A stretch of DNA of 64,000 nucleotides, taken from positions 1 through 64,000 of IMG/VR virus record IMGVR_UViG_3300014208_000024; one strand, given 5' to 3'. Source of the DNA: a virus (taxonomy: Duplodnaviria > Caudoviricetes). The translations under genes were made by a program, and so were the position numbers. The notes beneath the pieces were generated by a model. It had not been told where the DNA came from. It worked only from the letters and a program-made list of their open reading frames with translations, and ran no database searches. Below, piece by piece: positions 2,290 through 51,713 of this stretch (positions within the stretch are counted from its first letter, which is position 1; every line of letters begins with the position of its first letter).

Positions 2290-3183
2290 TCATACAAAAG
2301 TATGCGCTAAATCCTCTTTCTTGTCTTTATTAATTTTCCATTGTTTTTTTTGACAATTATCAGAACAATATTTTTTATGATTATATTCTGTATCAAATTT
2401 TTCTCCACAAAACCCACAAGTCCTATTTAAGTAACTTTCATGAACTATAGAATCCCACTTATGATTGTAACACACAACTGGACTTATTCCTATAAAATTT
2501 AAAAATTCAAAAACTTTTTTATTTGGAATTATAATTCTATTTACCGTTTCTTTTAAAAAAGCATCAAAATTATAACAATTTAATTTTTCAATTAAAAATT
2601 TATTATCTTCTTTTGTAAAAGAATCAGTACAAAAAACTGCTCCAACTTGATTGTCTAACGTACCATCACCAAGATACCAGTGTAAAATAGTCGTTTGATT
2701 TAACTCTATATCCTTTGGAACTATTTTAACATCATTTGGATACCATTTTTTTCTTAAATTAGTAAAAAAAACATTTGCCTTAGAATTTATAGTATAATAA
2801 TCAAACCCGCTATTGTTTTTCCCTTTGAATTTTGTTAATTCAAAACTAAATTGTTTAATAAAAAAATCAATATATTCTTCGAACTTGCAAGAATGAGTAA
2901 ATGACGAGTTTTGGTTGTTAATAATTCTTCGAAGATGTCCATCAGAAAGCAAAGACCCGTTAACAATATCCAAATCGTTTTTTGTTAAAAAAATTTCTTC
3001 TAAATTCTTTTTTGATTCATCTGAGCATTTATACGAACAAAATTTGTTAGATTTATGCTTTCTTTTATAAAAAAATTTTCCGCATTGTTCACAAACTCCT
3101 TTTGTATAATATTCATATCCTTTTCCATTCTTTCTTATCATTCGATATGAACCATCTTTAATTTTTTTAAAATCTCCTGTCAT
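2290..3183 (-). CDS. LAGLIDADG homing endonuclease with zinc-finger termini
   Basis: GSLLSDGHL and HWYLGDG motifs; CxxC...CSxxC fingers at both ends. Confidence 0.85.
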   Translation of the reverse strand: MTGDFKKIKDGSYRMIRKNGKGYEYYTKGVCEQCGKFFYKRKHKSNKFCSYKCSDESKKNLEEIFLTKNDLDIVNGSLLSDGHLRRIINNQNSSFTHSCKFEEYIDFFIKQFSFELTKFKGKNNSGFDYYTINSKANVFFTNLRKKWYPNDVKIVPKDIELNQTTILHWYLGDGTLDNQVGAVFCTDSFTKEDNKFLIEKLNCYNFDAFLKETVNRIIIPNKKVFEFLNFIGISPVVCYNHKWDSIVHESYLNRTCGFCGEKFDTEYNHKKYCSDNCQKKQWKINKDKKEDLAHTFV

Positions 3184-3270
3184 ATATTTATGTTTTTATA
3201 TAAATATAAACAAAAAAGGAGAAAAAACAAAATTAATAAAATATTTTAATATTCAAAGAACTTTATTGTA

Positions 3271-9968: not shown

Positions 9969-11396
9969 TTAACGATTTTTTTCTTTTAATTCTCTGGGCG
10001 CATTTCTTTCTTGATTTTTTCTTTTTTCTTCTTTACGCTCTTTAAATGTTGGTCCAGAATTTTTGTCTTTTATGTTTAAAATTGGAATTAAACGATCAAT
10101 AACATTGGCCGTTGGTTCATTTAATCTTTCTATTGTTTCAGAATCTTTATAAGCCCCTTTACATTCATCAAGAGTACCTTTACAAACTGATGTTGAAAAA
10201 ATTCCCTCCATTTCTTTTTTAAAATATTCTAAATCAAGTTTTTCTTTTGCCATAGAACGACTCATTTTTCTTCCAGCGCCATGACCACAACTATAATTAA
10301 ATTCTGGATTTGATTTTCCTTCACATATTAATGATCCATCTTTCATATTAAGTGCTACAATCATTTTTTCTCCAACGTATGAGCGTATGGCACCTTTGCG
10401 AATAATAAAGTCTTTAAAATCGATATAATTGTGTACTGTTTCAATAATTTCGATTGGTTTAATGCTTCCTAAAATAAGACATGATGTGTTTAACATCATT
10501 TTTCTATTAAATTCTGCATATTTTTGAGCAACTACCATATCAAGCAAATATTCAAAAGCATTTTCACCTTCCAGGAACTCCATGCCATTAATGTTAAAAT
10601 CAAAATCAAGTCCAAGTTCTTTTTTTGCAGATTCCGTTAGCTGTGGAATTGTAGTTTTATCTTTGGTGTTTTTATTTATAAATTCAATTTTTTCCTTTAA
10701 CTCCACATTTCTTTTATCACTTAAAAGTTTTTTTGCTTTATTTTGATGATAGTCACAAATACATTTACCAAAATTTCTAGATCCAGAGTGGATAGAAATC
10801 CATATGTCTTCCGTTTTTTCAGAAACTCCTAACTCGTAATAATGATTTCCTGATCCGAGTGAATTTATACTTAATTCAATGTGTTTTTGCTTCGCTTTAA
10901 TTTTACTGCACAATTCGCCAAAGCTCCTATAATCAAATTTTTTAAATTCATAATTTGTTTTAAATTTGTTGTTATAAGCTCTCGTAAAAATCAACATTTC
11001 ATTATTAAGTTCATCCCAAGGAAAATGTTTTCCAAATAAAAACTTTTCATTATTATTAATTTTAAATCCATTTTCATTAGCATTAATACCCATTGGAATA
11101 CTTTCTCTTATCTCTTTGTCAAATTTTTCAAAAGTCATATTTAACTTTTTTCCAATGTTTGCACATAAAATTCCGCATGAAATATCGACTCCGATTGTAT
11201 TGGGAATCAAATATTTACCAAGTGGCATTGTGAACCCAACAACAGAACCTTTTCCAGCATGAGCATCTACTTGCAATACAACATTGTTATCAAATGCAAT
11301 ATGATTTATCATATTGTTAACTTGATTAATACATTGTTCTTCAATTTCATCATTAGTAATTAATGCTCTTGTAAACTTTCCTTTTATTGTGTACAT
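9969..11396 (-). CDS. rtcB: RtcB RNA 3'-phosphate/5'-OH ligase
   Basis: DAHAG, GVDISCG, LGSGNHY, HSGSR, HNY, RKGA, HGAGR motifs. Confidence 0.95.
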   Translation of the reverse strand: MYTIKGKFTRALITNDEIEEQCINQVNNMINHIAFDNNVVLQVDAHAGKGSVVGFTMPLGKYLIPNTIGVDISCGILCANIGKKLNMTFEKFDKEIRESIPMGINANENGFKINNNEKFLFGKHFPWDELNNEMLIFTRAYNNKFKTNYEFKKFDYRSFGELCSKIKAKQKHIELSINSLGSGNHYYELGVSEKTEDIWISIHSGSRNFGKCICDYHQNKAKKLLSDKRNVELKEKIEFINKNTKDKTTIPQLTESAKKELGLDFDFNINGMEFLEGENAFEYLLDMVVAQKYAEFNRKMMLNTSCLILGSIKPIEIIETVHNYIDFKDFIIRKGAIRSYVGEKMIVALNMKDGSLICEGKSNPEFNYSCGHGAGRKMSRSMAKEKLDLEYFKKEMEGIFSTSVCKGTLDECKGAYKDSETIERLNEPTANVIDRLIPILNIKDKNSGPTFKERKEEKRKNQERNAPRELKEKNR

Positions 11397-21667: not shown

Positions 21668-22315
21668 TCAAATCAAAGACAAATCTCCATTAAGCTCTTT
21701 TTTAACAGCTTCGTCTCCGAATTTCCCTTTAATTCTATCAAGCCAAATTTGAGTTTTCAACTTAACCATCCAAACTATATCATTACCTTTGGTTTTTCTT
21801 ATTCCTTTAGCCATGATACCTTCTTGAACATCAAATTTACCAATTTTTACATCATTTACGAGCTCTTTATTAAGATTGCCTTGATACAGCACCCTTGGAA
21901 TTCCAAGATGCTCAAAATTGTCTACAAACTCTTTTGGGGGAACCCACCCTTTTTGAAACAAGTTTACATCAAAAAGAATTATATCCATAATATCTCCTTC
22001 TTGATGGAACCCAGCAAAAGAGTTGGGACCATAATATTCAGAGAATACTACAAAATTTCTAATGTTTCTATAACTCTTGTCATCGATAAATACTTTGGCA
22101 AGTCCTTCGCCGTACTTATTTAAAAACAAAGTTACCGCAGAGCCAAACTGTTCATGTTTTTCATCAATCATGTTGTTTCTGGTACCAAATTTATACCAAC
22201 CACGTTTTTTGGTAAACTCACATCTAATGTTGCTTCCATCTAGTTTTTCGAAGCCCCATACTGGTGCACCTAATATACCTTTATTCCAATATTCTATATG
22301 TGGATAATGTTTCAT
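21668..22315 (-). CDS. Rnl2-like ATP-dependent RNA ligase
   Basis: EKLDGSN (motif I), FSEYYG, LFDV, EGIMAK, VKLK; start re-chosen at MKHYPHI. Confidence 0.75.
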   Translation of the reverse strand: MKHYPHIEYWNKGILGAPVWGFEKLDGSNIRCEFTKKRGWYKFGTRNNMIDEKHEQFGSAVTLFLNKYGEGLAKVFIDDKSYRNIRNFVVFSEYYGPNSFAGFHQEGDIMDIILFDVNLFQKGWVPPKEFVDNFEHLGIPRVLYQGNLNKELVNDVKIGKFDVQEGIMAKGIRKTKGNDIVWMVKLKTQIWLDRIKGKFGDEAVKKELNGDLSLI

Positions 22316-23802: not shown

Positions 23803-23807
23803 ATTTG

Positions 23808-23891
23808 AGCACATGGAGGGATTTGAACCCCCGACTCTTTCGAGATAACAGTTTTGCAGACTGATGGCTTAGACCACTCACCCACATGTGC
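23808..23891 (-). tRNA. tRNA-Cys(GCA) with long variable arm
   Basis: GCACATG/CATGTGC, U73, loop CTGCAAA, CTC-GAAA-GAG V arm. Confidence 0.82.
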
Positions 23892-45408: not shown

Positions 45409-46311
45409 TTATCTTATAATATTTAATTCCTTTTCAGTCCATACCTCAAATGGTATGTTATTTTTTTTACAATATTTTTTAACAGCTTTAATTTTTTCTT
45501 TATTATTCCATCTATTTAACAATCTTTTTGGCTTAACTTCAACTATTTTTTTTAGTTCTTCTTTGTAAAAAATTTCAAAATCTATAATTGTACTTCTTTT
45601 TCCATTCCTATATTTTATATTGTATGGCTCGTAATTATAATAAAGAACATTATCATCTTTTTCTAATATTTCCATAGCTATTAACTCATAAGAACTTCTG
45701 TATTTTATTTCTTTTTTATTTTTATTACTATAATAAATTCCACCTTTATATTTTTTATGTGATGGAGAAATCCCAAACATTCCATTGCTTTTTCCGCTAT
45801 TTTTTCCTTTTATAGAATTTGATATTTTCTTTTTCACATCCTCGCTTTGTGATGCACATTTTTTAGAACAATAAATGTTTTCATGCTTATTAACTTCTTT
45901 TCCACAAAATTTACATCTTGGTTTTTCTTTTATATTTTTTTTCTTACCTGCTTCAATACGCTCTATTAAAAATCCAAACGCACCATTTTCTCTAATGCGT
46001 TTTTTTATAGAATCTCCTATGTTTTTTTTCGTTTTTTCTGATTGAATTCTTTTGTTTGCACAACTTCTAGAACAAAACATAGAATATTTTTTTTTCTCAA
46101 AATCTGTTTTTTTTAAAATAATCTCATATTTTTTTCCACATCTCAAACATCCAAACTCATACTCTAATCTTTCTATTTTTCTACTATTAGATGCTTTTTG
46201 TATCATGTTTTTTTTGTTTGGGTTTTTTTTACAATTAATTATATGACCACCAAGTTGTTGTTGCTTGTCATATTTTATTAATTGTCCACAATATTTACAT
46301 TTTTTTTCCAT
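45409..46311 (-). CDS. Zinc-finger/NUMOD plus TnsA-like homing endonuclease
   Basis: KYRSSYE...IIDFEI...VEVKP. Confidence 0.8.
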   Translation of the reverse strand: MEKKCKYCGQLIKYDKQQQLGGHIINCKKNPNKKNMIQKASNSRKIERLEYEFGCLRCGKKYEIILKKTDFEKKKYSMFCSRSCANKRIQSEKTKKNIGDSIKKRIRENGAFGFLIERIEAGKKKNIKEKPRCKFCGKEVNKHENIYCSKKCASQSEDVKKKISNSIKGKNSGKSNGMFGISPSHKKYKGGIYYSNKNKKEIKYRSSYELIAMEILEKDDNVLYYNYEPYNIKYRNGKRSTIIDFEIFYKEELKKIVEVKPKRLLNRWNNKEKIKAVKKYCKKNNIPFEVWTEKELNIIR

Positions 46312-46437: not shown

Positions 46438-46440
46438 ATA

Positions 46441-46607
46441 AAATTAGGGAAATTTCGAACTAAGCATTTTTCTTTTTCTGCCCCATTTAACCACTCTGGA
46501 ACCCCCCCGAATTACTCCTTATTTGTCGAGGGGGATGGATTCGAACCACCGAAGGCTTACGCCAGCAGATTCCTTATCGAAGTAACTTAATTTGTTACCA
46601 CTAATTT
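46441..46607 (-). tRNA. Cassette E: circularly permuted type II (Tyr-like body) tRNA with AGG anticodon
   Basis: 3' half 46526-46578, 5' half 46479-46509; join GCA|GA restores GCAGA/TCTGC; loop TAAGGAA; 16-nt linker. Confidence 0.78.
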
Positions 46608-47387
46608 ATATTTTTTATTCCAATTTTCTATTTTGTTTTTTAAATCATCTAATGAAATAGAACATTTTTTATTTTTACTTGAATTATTTGAATGAACCAT
46701 TAATTTGCAATTTGCTGGATGAGAAATAATATTTGAATCAATTTTTTGTTTAAAACCTTCCGAAATTGAAAACATGTGATCTCTACTAATTCCATTTAAG
46801 TTATTCCCTTTATTCTTTGCACAATACCATCCAAATTTTTTAATCAACTCAAAGTCAAATTCTTCTACGAAATCTTTTAGATTAAAATTAAATCGACACT
46901 CTGATTTATATATATTAAATTCAGTCATCTTTTTTTTATCAAAAATTTTTCTACAATTTATCCCACAAAATTTATTTTTTCTTTTTTTAAATGGCAAAAT
47001 AGCATTACACTCTAAACAAAAATTTGGATTTTCATAATATTTGTCAATACCATTTTTTTTAATATTAGCATTTTTAATGTTTTCTTTTGCTTTGTCACTA
47101 AAAACAACTTTTCTGCCAGTATTTTTCTTATTGTTAAATGATGTAGAACAACTTAAAGAACAAAAAGTATTAAACCTTTTTTCGTATGAAATTAAATTAC
47201 CACAATGTTTACATTTTTTAATATCAATTTTAGGTTTATGAAATTCATTATAACAAGTTAAGGAACAAAAATGTTTTCTTCCCATTTTTTCACTTCTTTT
47301 AAATTCTGTTTTTGTTTTTTCAAACTCATTTTTACAATTTTCGCAAATTATTAAAATTGTTTTTCTATTATTCTTAAAAATTTTCAT
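46587..47387 (-). CDS. Zinc-finger plus HNH-like homing endonuclease
   Basis: FCSLxC repeats; GISRDHMFSI...HPANC; start re-chosen at MKIFKNN. Confidence 0.78.
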   Translation of the reverse strand: MKIFKNNRKTILIICENCKNEFEKTKTEFKRSEKMGRKHFCSLTCYNEFHKPKIDIKKCKHCGNLISYEKRFNTFCSLSCSTSFNNKKNTGRKVVFSDKAKENIKNANIKKNGIDKYYENPNFCLECNAILPFKKRKNKFCGINCRKIFDKKKMTEFNIYKSECRFNFNLKDFVEEFDFELIKKFGWYCAKNKGNNLNGISRDHMFSISEGFKQKIDSNIISHPANCKLMVHSNNSSKNKKCSISLDDLKNKIENWNKKYKLVVTN

Positions 47388-47459
47388 ACTTTTATTTTTC
47401 TTATAAATATTAAAAAAAAATAAAAGTGGAGTTTTTTTGAGTCGAACTTGTATGCTTAG

Positions 47460-47533
47460 TGGAAGTGAAGGGTTTCGAACCCTCATACCTTATGCTTGCA
47501 AAGCATCTGCTCAGCCAATTGAGCTACACCCCC
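47460..47533 (-). tRNA. tRNA-Ala(TGC)
   Basis: GGGGGTG/CACTTCC with G3:U70; loop TTTGCAA. Confidence 0.9.
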
Positions 47534-47770: not shown

Positions 47771-47778
47771 TTTTTCAA

Positions 47779-47929
47779 AAAACAGGGAAAATTTATAAGA
47801 GTTTGTTTTACGTGCTCTAACCGACTGAGCTATCCCGCCATTTTCCTTTTATTTGTGGCGGGAGCAGGATTCGAACCTACGGCGACGGCATTATGATTGC
47901 GAAGTAACTCTCATTGTTGCCACTGTTTT
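47779..47929 (-). tRNA. Cassette G: circularly permuted tRNA-Met(CAT)
   Basis: 3' half 47856-47900, 5' half 47811-47839; join CG|GCA; GGCGGGA/TCCCGCC; 16-nt linker. Confidence 0.87.
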
Positions 47930-47944
47930 ATCTTAAATATGTTA

Positions 47945-48098
47945 AAAATTAGGGAATTCTTCGCAGAATCTGTTTTTAAGCGCTCTAACCAACTGAGCTA
48001 TCCCCGCATTATTTTTTATTTAGAGCGGGGAACAGGATTCGAACCTATGGCCTCTGTCTTGGAAGGACGATGAAATTCTACATTTTGCCACTAATTTT
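47945..48098 (-). tRNA. Cassette F: circularly permuted tRNA-Gly(TCC)
   Basis: 3' half 48024-48068, 5' half 47979-48007; join CT|GTC restores CTGTC/GACAG; U73; 16-nt linker. Confidence 0.88.
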
Positions 48099-48610: not shown

Positions 48611-48617
48611 ATATTTG

Positions 48618-48699
48618 TCGAAAGGGAGGGAGTTGAACCCCCATAGCCGAAGGCGACGGTTTTACAGACCGCTGATTTAGCCGATTTACCATCCTTTCG
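48618..48699 (-). tRNA. tRNA-Tyr(GTA)
   Basis: CGAAAGG/CCTTTCG, GCGGT-CTGTAAA-ACCGT, long V arm. Confidence 0.88.
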
Positions 48700-48902: not shown

Positions 48903-48906
48903 ATTT

Positions 48907-49058
48907 AAATCAGGGTAAAAGCGAATAAGCTTTTTTGTTTTTGAATTTTTCCCCATAGTTTAAAATTTAATTGGTGGGGAAAGCAGGATTCGAACCTACA
49001 ATGTTTAGTTTTACAGACTATTTTCTTCCGAAGTAACTCATTCTGTTGCCACTGATTT
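48907..49058 (-). tRNA. Cassette H: circularly permuted tRNA-Tyr(GTA)-like RNA with minimal D-arm
   Basis: 3' part 48972-49029 with encoded CCA, 5' part 48943-48954; GGGGAAA/TTTCCCC; flanks AAATCAG/CTGATTT and GAATGAGT/GCTTATTC. Confidence 0.78.
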
Positions 49059-49059
49059 G

Positions 49060-49131
49060 TGGAGGATAACGATACCGATTCGTTGGTCTGTTGCTTGCAA
49101 AACAACCGCTTTACCATTAAGCTAAGCCCCC
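49060..49131 (-). tRNA. tRNA-Ala(TGC) with non-canonical T-loop
   Basis: GGGGGCT/ATCCTCC (G3:U70), loop TTTGCAA, T-arm AACGA-ATCGGTA-TCGTT. Confidence 0.72.
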
Positions 49132-49811
49132 AATTTATAATAAGAGAAAATGTGATTTTTATGAGATTTATTAACACCTCTACAAACCTTAGAAACACAA
49201 TTCCAATCAAACCCATCTTCTATAACTTGCCTTCCAAAATTATAAATTTTTATCAAATTATTTTCTAAATTATAACAAAAAACTTTTTTACAATTCTTAC
49301 TATTTATTCCACTATTTTTTTCTTTTGTTTTTTCACTCCATTTTAATCCAACTCTTTTAGCAGACATTTTTTCTTTACTTTCTTTAGAATGATTTTTTCC
49401 ATAAAATCCATTTTTATCTCCAAGACAACTTGTTTTTCTTGTTTTTGACATCTTTATTTTTGATTCTTCCGAGTGTTTGAAAATTCCTTTTTTACCTTTG
49501 TTCCAAGGAACAACACTGAATGAACCATCTCCACCATTTGTCATATTTGTAAGCTCAAACCCCCAAGTTTTAATTTGAGAAATCCAATATTTTTCCCAAA
49601 AATCACAACTTAACTCATCAGTTTCTTCTATGATAAAAAGTTCTGGTAACAATCCATTTTTTTTTAATTTTTTAACCCAAGCAGTTTTTTTTGTATTTTT
49701 ACTTTCATTTAAATGGTCTCTAAATCTTCTTTCTACCCTATATGTTTTTCCAACATATTTTATACTTTTATTTCTTGGGTCAGAAAGTAAATAAATATAA
49801 ACTTTTTTCAT
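49122..49811 (-). CDS. GIY-YIG homing endonuclease with NUMOD3/NUMOD1 repeats
   Basis: VYIYLL...KYVGKT...RFRDH; HSEESKIKMS repeats. Confidence 0.9.
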   Translation of the reverse strand: MKKVYIYLLSDPRNKSIKYVGKTYRVERRFRDHLNESKNTKKTAWVKKLKKNGLLPELFIIEETDELSCDFWEKYWISQIKTWGFELTNMTNGGDGSFSVVPWNKGKKGIFKHSEESKIKMSKTRKTSCLGDKNGFYGKNHSKESKEKMSAKRVGLKWSEKTKEKNSGINSKNCKKVFCYNLENNLIKIYNFGRQVIEDGFDWNCVSKVCRGVNKSHKNHIFSYYKLGA

Positions 49812-50206: not shown

Positions 50207-50437
50207 TAAAAAAAACGTGAAGATTTCGTTAAACTTTTCAGAATACTTTTGTAATCTTTTATGATTTCTTGTACCAGAGATTTGTTTTTTTTCTTCAATT
50301 TTTCTTAACCTCTCTTTAATTGATTCGCTTTTCGCATGGCTGTTCCCTCCAAAGTTTTAATTATTAATATGATAAAGTTGATTTTGCTCAATATCATTGT
50401 TAGCTTTATCGTTCAAAAACTATGATATTATATTGTA

Positions 50438-50508
50438 AATCAGGGAATAGTTACCGAGGGAGTTTTTTGATTTGCAGTCGAAGTATCCCTACTGATTGCC
50501 ACTGACTT
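50438..50508 (-). ncRNA. Cassette I: minimal cassette whose cargo is only a Cys anticodon stem-loop
   Basis: AGTCAG/CTGATT, AGGGA/TCCCT, TGGCAA, TACTTC^G, cargo GA-CTGCAAA-TC, TATTCC. Confidence 0.72.
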
Positions 50509-50510
50509 TG

Positions 50511-50583
50511 AGCGGGTAAAGAGGTTCAAACTCTCGACTTTCAGATTGGAAATCTGACGCTCTATCAGCTGAGCTATACCCGC
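50511..50583 (-). tRNA. tRNA-Gly(TCC)
   Basis: GCGGGTA/TACCCGC, U73, TCAGA-TTTCCAA-TCTGA. Confidence 0.83.
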
Positions 50584-50688: not shown

Positions 50689-51369
50689 ATGACACCACTT
50701 TATACACAAGAAGAATTTGACAACGCTAAAGGTTGCGACAAATTGCCATGTAAATGTAAATATTGTAAAGAAACATTCTTTAGATATAAGTATATAATTA
50801 AAGCAGCATTAAACCCAAAAAACAAGCAAACTAATGATTATTGTTCAAGAAATTGTCAATATCAATCTCAGTTTAAGCATGAAACTATAAGATGTGACAA
50901 TTGCAATATTGAAATTAAAAAATTAATTTCTACTACAAAAAGACATAAAAATCATTTTTGTTCGCACTCATGTTCTACTAAATATTTTAACGCTCACAAA
51001 ACAACTGGAATTAGACGATCTAAATTAGAAATATGGCTTGAATCACAACTCACTTTTCTTTATCCAAGTCTTGAAATTCATTATAATAAAAAGGATGCCA
51101 TTGGATCAGAATTAGATATATATGTACCCTCTTTAAAAATTGCATTCGAATTAAATGGAATATTCCATTATGAGCCAATTTATGGTAATAATAAATTAGA
51201 TCAAATAAAAAATAATGATTCAAGAAAATATAAATCTTGTATTGATTTAAACATATCTTTGTGTATAATAGATTCATCTCAATTAAAATATTTTAAAGAG
51301 AAAAATTGTAAAAAATATTTAGATATTATTATTAATATTATAAACAACACAATGAATACTGGACAATAA
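50689..51369 (+). CDS. Zinc-finger plus PD-(D/E)XK/Vsr-like homing endonuclease
   Basis: ELDIYVPSLKIAFELNGIFHY. Confidence 0.8.
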   Translation: MTPLYTQEEFDNAKGCDKLPCKCKYCKETFFRYKYIIKAALNPKNKQTNDYCSRNCQYQSQFKHETIRCDNCNIEIKKLISTTKRHKNHFCSHSCSTKYFNAHKTTGIRRSKLEIWLESQLTFLYPSLEIHYNKKDAIGSELDIYVPSLKIAFELNGIFHYEPIYGNNKLDQIKNNDSRKYKSCIDLNISLCIIDSSQLKYFKEKNCKKYLDIIINIINNTMNTGQ

Positions 51370-51599: not shown

Positions 51600-51713
51600 T
51601 TAAGGTTTTGAGTTAAACATACCCGTCCCACATCCATAATCAGCATCCGCTGCACATGGATAACCGCCCATTGGGGAAGTTTCTGGTTGACGATATGTAA
51701 AATTTTGTTTCAC
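51600..51713 (-). CDS. Leader peptide (GTG start) MKQNFTYRQPETSPMGGYPCAADADYGCGTGMFNSKP
   Basis: 4 Pro, 5 Gly, 3 Ala, 3 Tyr, 2 Asp, 2 internal Met, 2 Cys. Confidence 0.8.
   Translation of the reverse strand: MKQNFTYRQPETSPMGGYPCAADADYGCGTGMFNSKP

Follow-up and report, generated by a model that had tools for sequence, protein, structure and literature searches.

A probable minimal Y-RNA-like gene with an anticodon-type loop in a phage tRNA operon

Described systems and the element

YrlA (RF02553; Chen et al. 2014, PMC4201824; structure in 10.1101/312249) resembles the RNA family considered here in its stem formed by the 5' and 3' ends, in a YUAY-like motif, in its same-strand linkage to Ro60/TROVE genes and in the permuted T-acceptor-D domain, which is present in the full-size members of our family. 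YrlA is reported to carry the sequence GNCGAA, and in animal Y RNAs the part bound by Ro60 is reported to be a bulged helix (PMC4201824, PMC12135203); an anticodon loop is reported to be absent from YrlA (10.1101/312249). In contrast, the terminal handle of our family reads GURGYRA with a bulged U, and many members carry an anticodon loop. The element described below differs further in that it has no elbow at all, lies far from Ro60 and is situated within a tRNA operon.

YrlB of Salmonella and M. smegmatis and Yrn2 of D. radiodurans are similar to the element in being short, long-hairpin RNAs with no full tRNA domain, and Yrn2 is also co-transcribed with a tRNA. Compared by description only, their loops are small and pyrimidine-rich, whereas the element has a 7-nt anticodon-type loop. 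Thermus phage phiLo has a homologous phage Ro60 and the stem-bulge-stem RNAs Yrl1 and Yrl2 (PDB 9KOP, 9L5Y); the paper on them (PMC12135203) tested two upstream CGAA candidates, whereas the handle copies lie downstream. Theta (HDV-like) ribozymes (PMC10879173) are likewise small RNAs directly behind phage tRNAs, and the element begins within 5 nt of the tRNA-Gly end at 50510. Unlike in them, no nested double pseudoknot was found (judged by a crude descriptor with no positive control, the lack of an Rfam hit and covarying helices that are only nested), most members of its family are not at tRNA 3' ends, and the family is linked to TROVE genes. Neither this handle nor any anticodon-bearing Y RNA was met with in a literature search.

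The window, i.e. the whole stretch of 64,000 nt that was analysed, covers the opening 64 kb of a virus record that is 372 kb long, has 29% GC and contains many tRNA genes. The element and its parts are listed in Table 1. A sequence-only reading of this DNA had described flank motifs, the cargo GA-CTGCAAA-TC and a run A6, and all of these are present. The element is probably co-transcribed with the tRNA-Gly(TCC) gene that precedes it. The spaced motif pair TGGCAA-N6-16-TACTTC occurs five times in the window, as compared to 0.06 expected. A Logan contig, probably of the source sample, spans the element with zero differences; the element had no coverage in a second DNA sequencing run.

Two observations concern the neighbourhood. 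The gene behind the element (50300-50335, minus strand) begins with ATG CGA AAA GCG AAT and then changes frame; the same gene start followed by an early stop or shift is seen in the relatives L172, L536-L538 and L543, which hints at a conserved frameshift. Endonuclease-like genes are interspersed among the tRNA genes (49122-49811, 45409-46311, 46587-47486 and 50689-51369), their Pfam matches being GIY-YIG/NUMOD3 and TnsA-like; two Cys-rich ORFs have no Pfam hit.

Table 1. Positions of the element, its predicted parts and related features in the window
Feature	Position	Strand	Remark
Probable minimal Y-RNA-like gene (handle + anticodon-type loop)	50437..50508	-	72 nt, RNA ends inferred
P1 5' strand + GUGGCAA motif (G paired, U bulged, then two G-C pairs)	50496..50508	-	covariation; predicted Ro60-binding strand, by analogy with PMC4201824
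GTGGCAA	50502-50496	-	read from sequence
P2 5' strand AGGGA (50490-50486) + conserved UACUUC internal-loop strand (50485-50480)	50480..50490	-	
Cargo = tRNA positions 30-40, 2-bp stem, loop CUGCAAA	50469..50479	-	DNA GA CTGCAAA TC (50479-50469); anticodon GCA 50475-50473
A6 strand facing UACUUC (50468-50463) + P2 3' strand UCCCU (50461-50457)	50457..50468	-	
UUCC (50447-50444) + P1 3' strand (50443-50437)	50437..50447	-	
tRNA-Gly(TCC), immediately upstream of element	50510..50583	-	identical order in L172
Sibling: handle + permuted Tyr(GTA)-like tRNA	48906..49059	-	
Sibling: handle + permuted Gly(TCC) tRNA	47945..48098	-	YrlA match 30.8 bits
Sibling: handle + permuted CAT tRNA	47778..47930	-	YrlA match 36.7 bits
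Sibling: handle + permuted Tyr-like body, non-canonical loop TAAGGAA	46440..46608	-	
Sibling: handle + permuted tRNA, ATG anticodon	34921..35133	-	
Sibling: handle + permuted Asn(GTT) tRNA	34659..34810	-	
Sibling: handle around whole unpermuted TTA tRNA	33602..33735	-	
Sibling: handle + Leu-like tRNA mimic, acceptor closed by GAAA loop	23991..24131	-	
RtcB RNA ligase gene, RNA-repair context	10068..11324	-	E 7.8e-54
RNA ligase domain PF09414, RNA-repair context	21794..22264	-	E 1.1e-11
37-codon leader peptide, two Cys codons, then terminator-like hairpin	51600..51713	-	GTG start at 51713
Intact tRNA-Cys(GCA), Leu/Cys operon	23807..23891	-	7-nt loop identical to element's

Handle structure and its link to TROVE genes

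Scanning viral and metagenome collections with the pattern yielded at least 160 handle copies in related viral loci; the null for these scans was 2 hits among 761 5' halves (among the matches listed). The flanks are two strands that pair with each other. Over 21 short copies, 88% of the cells of the two helices are paired and 11 of the 12 pairs show a compensatory change, which none of 500 shuffles reached. Moreover, the purine that follows the U in GURG is paired to the base preceding the terminal helix in all 86 non-redundant copies listed (44 A-U, 41 G-C and 1 G-U), and this pair was not part of the descriptor selection. Because the flanks covary and the unselected pair holds in every one of these copies, the handle consists, on comparative grounds, of a terminal helix in which one base is bulged, followed by an internal loop and a second helix. 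Folding of single sequences was no better than that of shuffles (z -0.4 to -1.4), i.e. the structure rests on covariation. As in Y RNAs, the 5' and 3' ends of the element form a stem with a bulged helix; its length, with ends that are predicted, would be 72-75 nt, as compared to 80-130 nt for Y RNAs.

It is conspicuous that the handle occurs together with genes of the Ro60/TROVE family. A TROVE gene was found in 48 of 84 loci with the module as compared to 11 of 439 without it (loci listed, fetched by the RNA pattern alone, kinship ignored), and in the module loci gene and module never differ in strand. The Ro60 of phiLo is a homolog of this protein family (E 2.7e-19). In the genome studied here a TROVE gene is immediately behind the handle copy at genome position 85010 (E 5e-19), and the Ro60/TROVE gene of the phage occupies genome positions 83255-84852 (L035:13255-14852, minus strand). 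Y RNAs are expected on the same strand within about 4 kb of Ro60, as is seen in the 48 loci of the family and for the copy at 85010; the element itself is 34 kb from this gene. Compared to intact relatives that are 81-84% identical, the phage Ro60 gene has a 1-nt deletion (frameshift) near codon 24, which is seen in two assemblies (JGI and ENA, possibly from the same reads). Because of this frameshift, the element may have as its Ro60 partner a truncated product or else a protein of the host. The TAnnTTTG boxes found before the operons suggest a Bacteroidota host. From the structure and the gene linkage we infer that the handle RNA binds Ro60, and on the sequence evidence we consider it highly probable that the element is a Ro60-handle RNA, i.e. 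Y-RNA-like.

Two siblings in the window and one copy in L185 match the permuted T-acceptor-D domain of the YrlA model with 31-37 bits, the cut-off being 69. The T, acceptor and D domains, present in siblings, are absent from the element, which has GGCAA in place of the YrlA motif GNCGAAN0-1G and gave no Rfam match at either the gathering or the E-value (E<=10) threshold. The element is not filed as YrlA because it fails on motif, elbow and score. The motif GNCGAA was not found in exact form among the at least 160 copies, 13 of which have G[G/A]CGA; one exact GGCGAA is in L529, where an array of four handles (L529:2030-2460) precedes a TROVE gene that has the NCBI label Bacteroidia, next to a Prim-Pol gene.

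In phiLo (MH673673) there are exactly two handle pattern matches in 178 kb, with weak model scores (E 0.36 and 5.3). They are found directly downstream of the crystallised Ro60 gene (L547:2963-3043 and L547:3160-3245), and one has the loop CTGCTAA, which is of the Ser(GCU) type. In crAssE-Sib (OR575929, L544:1990-2410) three handle variants (GTGGTGA/ATGGTGA ... TACTTCG) precede the Ro gene, two of them annotated as tRNA-Tyr and tRNA-Lys. The Ro60 region of Vibrio phage Va1 had no handle match, and the handle model found none in 151 genomes of the phylum of an Ignavibacteriales MAG and four others, a search that had no positive control.

The genome studied here contains 11 handle copies, ten found by the descriptor, which gave none in three shuffles, and the eleventh being that at genome position 85010. 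As cargo these copies hold permuted tRNAs (Gly, CAT, Asn, Tyr-like, ATG), one entire tRNA, a mimic whose acceptor is closed, or the loop alone, the latter also in a second copy (CAT) at genome position 338514. The tRNA inside the handle at 33602-33735 is complete, with a TTA (ochre) anticodon and with G1 and CCA embedded. We also note that tRNA-Tyr(GTA) at 48617-48699 has a C1-G72 pair, i.e. the archaeal/eukaryotic identity, as does the Tyr-like sibling at 46440-46608. The minus strand of the window furthermore encodes a GOLLD RNA (226 bits, 41517-41900) and a small SRP RNA match (42 bits, 42370-42453). A T4-type Rnl1 was looked for in the phage and gave no match, although the control was also silent.

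The loop and its variation among relatives

The cargo comprises tRNA positions 30-40 only, the acceptor, D and T arms of a tRNA-Cys being absent, and its 2-bp stem is about half formed in the predicted ensemble (pair probability about 0.45-0.48). The sequence-only reading had called the element the smallest natural version of its kind, holding only an anticodon loop. The cargo is in fact an anticodon-type loop, and the element represents a natural minimal form within a conserved family; no copy in its own genome is smaller, but other phages have shorter cargos. The same reading would have regarded it as a deletion remnant if it had no activity and such forms were not conserved elsewhere. At least 57 non-redundant short-cargo forms were found, often arrayed ahead of TROVE genes. 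The design of a 2-bp stem with a 7-nt loop also occurs with a Gly loop (L172, L064) and a Lys loop (L018), and in L185 a Cys loop on a 3-bp stem is right before TROVE. Since minimal forms recur, including another Cys loop, the element is no one-off remnant.

The minimal copy of L064 shares its first 11 nt with a full-size copy of L027, and the flanks of the two are almost identical. Because it equals the L027 copy minus the elbow, the comparison suggests that minimal forms can arise by elbow loss. In addition, L064 (655-790) and L027 (near 3130-3260) have an unpermuted tRNA-Met(CAT)-like gene with a handle within the anticodon stem; the end of this tRNA/Y-RNA hybrid is closed by a GCAA loop, and its 5' and 3' ends are free.

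Loops resembling those of tRNAs are more frequent than in shuffled sequences. A centred anticodon-type loop was found in 17 of the 57 short forms listed (4.5+/-1.9 after shuffling, a null that also breaks stems), about two thirds of the short forms having generic, non-anticodon loops. Among the loops ahead of a T-arm, 15 of 32 have U33 and a purine at position 37 (5.5+/-2.2 shuffled). When only the loop was tested, the value was 6 of 11 for full-size forms (P 0.0002), while for short forms the result was weak, i.e. 3 of 9 (P 0.011, two of them orthologs) and 14 of 42 as compared to 8.7+/-2.6. In orthologous full-size copies the anticodon CAT is changed to TGG or CAG and G37 is gained. G37 is typical of Pro and Leu tRNAs.

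The orthologous sites were located with the downstream gene as an anchor. In L172 the element is present with a Gly loop and differs in P2 by a compensatory change from G-C to A-U. The loops of the two differ by two substitutions, both in the anticodon, and each loop is identical to that of a real tRNA. In L537 the handle is retained and its loop is not of the anticodon type, a 5' stump is left in L543, and L536 and L538 lack the element. As the site thus has a Gly loop, another loop, a stump or nothing in relatives, the element is, by this comparison, accessory and its loop labile.

Possible functions and their implications

The reading we put forward, tentatively and at somewhat less than an even chance, is that of a Ro60-bound anticodon bait for anticodon nucleases. 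The RNA would be cut from the tRNA operon transcript when tRNA-Gly is processed, its bulged helix would dock on a Ro60 ring of the phage or the host, and the loop, which is the same as that of tRNA-Cys, would be displayed as a bait or competitor to anticodon-recognising proteins, host anticodon nucleases being the likeliest targets. The setting would be a phage RNA-repair kit consisting of Ro60, RtcB and a second RNA ligase. The element may derive from a YrlA-like copy of full size that lost its T, acceptor and D arms, and the anticodon would be switchable, Gly in the ortholog and Cys in the element. Hughes et al. proposed that YrlA competitively inhibits an anticodon nuclease whose substrates include tRNA-Cys(GCA) (PMC7790460), and Cas13b6 cuts isolated anticodon stem-loops (PMC13692257). 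Against the bait speak the poor conservation of the loop at this site, the many short forms (most of them) that have no anticodon-type loop, the distance of 34 kb from Ro60, the lack of an exact GNCGAA, the half-formed 2-bp stem and the frameshift in the phage Ro60 gene.

The predominance of generic loops, at about two thirds of the short forms, and the non-anticodon loop of the L537 ortholog would also suit a simple Y-RNA hairpin of the YrlB or Yrn2 kind, which would occupy, stabilise or tether Ro60 (e.g. to PNPase) with a leftover loop of irrelevant sequence. A Y RNA of the long-hairpin type is present in every bacterium studied (PMC4201824), and the Ro60-Yrl complexes of phiLo damp PNPase (PMC12135203). 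However, both substitutions between the orthologs are anticodon changes, the resulting loops match those of real tRNAs exactly, and the family has an excess of loops with U33 and a purine at 37; we regard the plain hairpin as possible but rather unlikely. The absence of the element in two relatives, the stump in a third, the frameshifted Ro60 gene and the deletions that L064/L027 show to occur could all be taken as signs of a deletion remnant of a full-size copy that is drifting to loss. This is improbable in view of the intact handle motifs, the compensatory P2 change relative to L172, the handle kept in L537 and the minimal forms that are common and arrayed before TROVE genes.

The suggestion of intrinsic catalytic activity in the sequence-only reading found no support: there was no Rfam ribozyme match at E<=10, the covariation describes a nested rod only, and the family tracks the Ro60/TROVE gene. 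We thus think it very unlikely that the flanks are a self-cleaving or splicing device that excises and circularises the cargo, either unaided or together with a protein and RtcB, making tRNAs from permuted genes and releasing an 11-nt loop in the present case. Joining of the cargo ends would yield canonical tRNAs in four siblings, the tRNA-Met of L064/L027 is unpermuted with the module inside its anticodon stem, the phage encodes RtcB, and the element is next to a tRNA 3' end, a position that it shares with theta ribozymes. Yet the junctions lie at many different tRNA positions, many cargos could not make a tRNA (closed acceptor, no anticodon, tiny hairpins), no ribozyme family matched, no HDV-type fold was found with a crude descriptor that had no positive control, and the link to TROVE is tight. 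A permuted intron or circularisation device was dropped given the TROVE link and the variety of cargos.

The sequence-only reading also noted two Cys codons in the operon leader and no other Cys tRNA in the array; a link of these with the Cys loop found no support. The leader does have two Cys (TGT) codons and ARAGORN finds no Cys tRNA in the operon, but an intact tRNA-Cys(GCA) is encoded in another operon of the window, the leader of which has three Cys. In L172 one Cys fewer in the leader accompanies the Gly loop, as would be expected if the Cys loop replaced a missing Cys tRNA and explained the two Cys codons of an attenuator leader. The argument fails, however, because one Cys codon is retained in every one of the leaders of L172, L536 and L538, where the site has no Cys loop but a Gly loop (L172) or no element. 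The element RNA also has no acceptor stem, and we give this explanation hardly any credence.

The element bears on the purpose of tRNA mimicry in bacterial and phage Y RNAs: the family often keeps an anticodon loop and the element keeps only the loop, so that the handle is separated from the cargo. The handle has been missed by Rfam and mis-annotated as tRNA in GenBank records, and it is present in the cultured phage phiLo, whose Ro60 was purified and crystallised. The 72-nt construct suits tests of Ro60 binding and of the nuclease-competitor idea for YrlA. More speculatively, and with considerable doubt, large phages may maintain a set of anticodon baits tethered to Ro60, ranging in size from whole tRNA mimics to an 11-nt loop on a handle, which would be retargeted by anticodon switching as a counter-defence against anticodon nucleases, the element being its minimal working unit.
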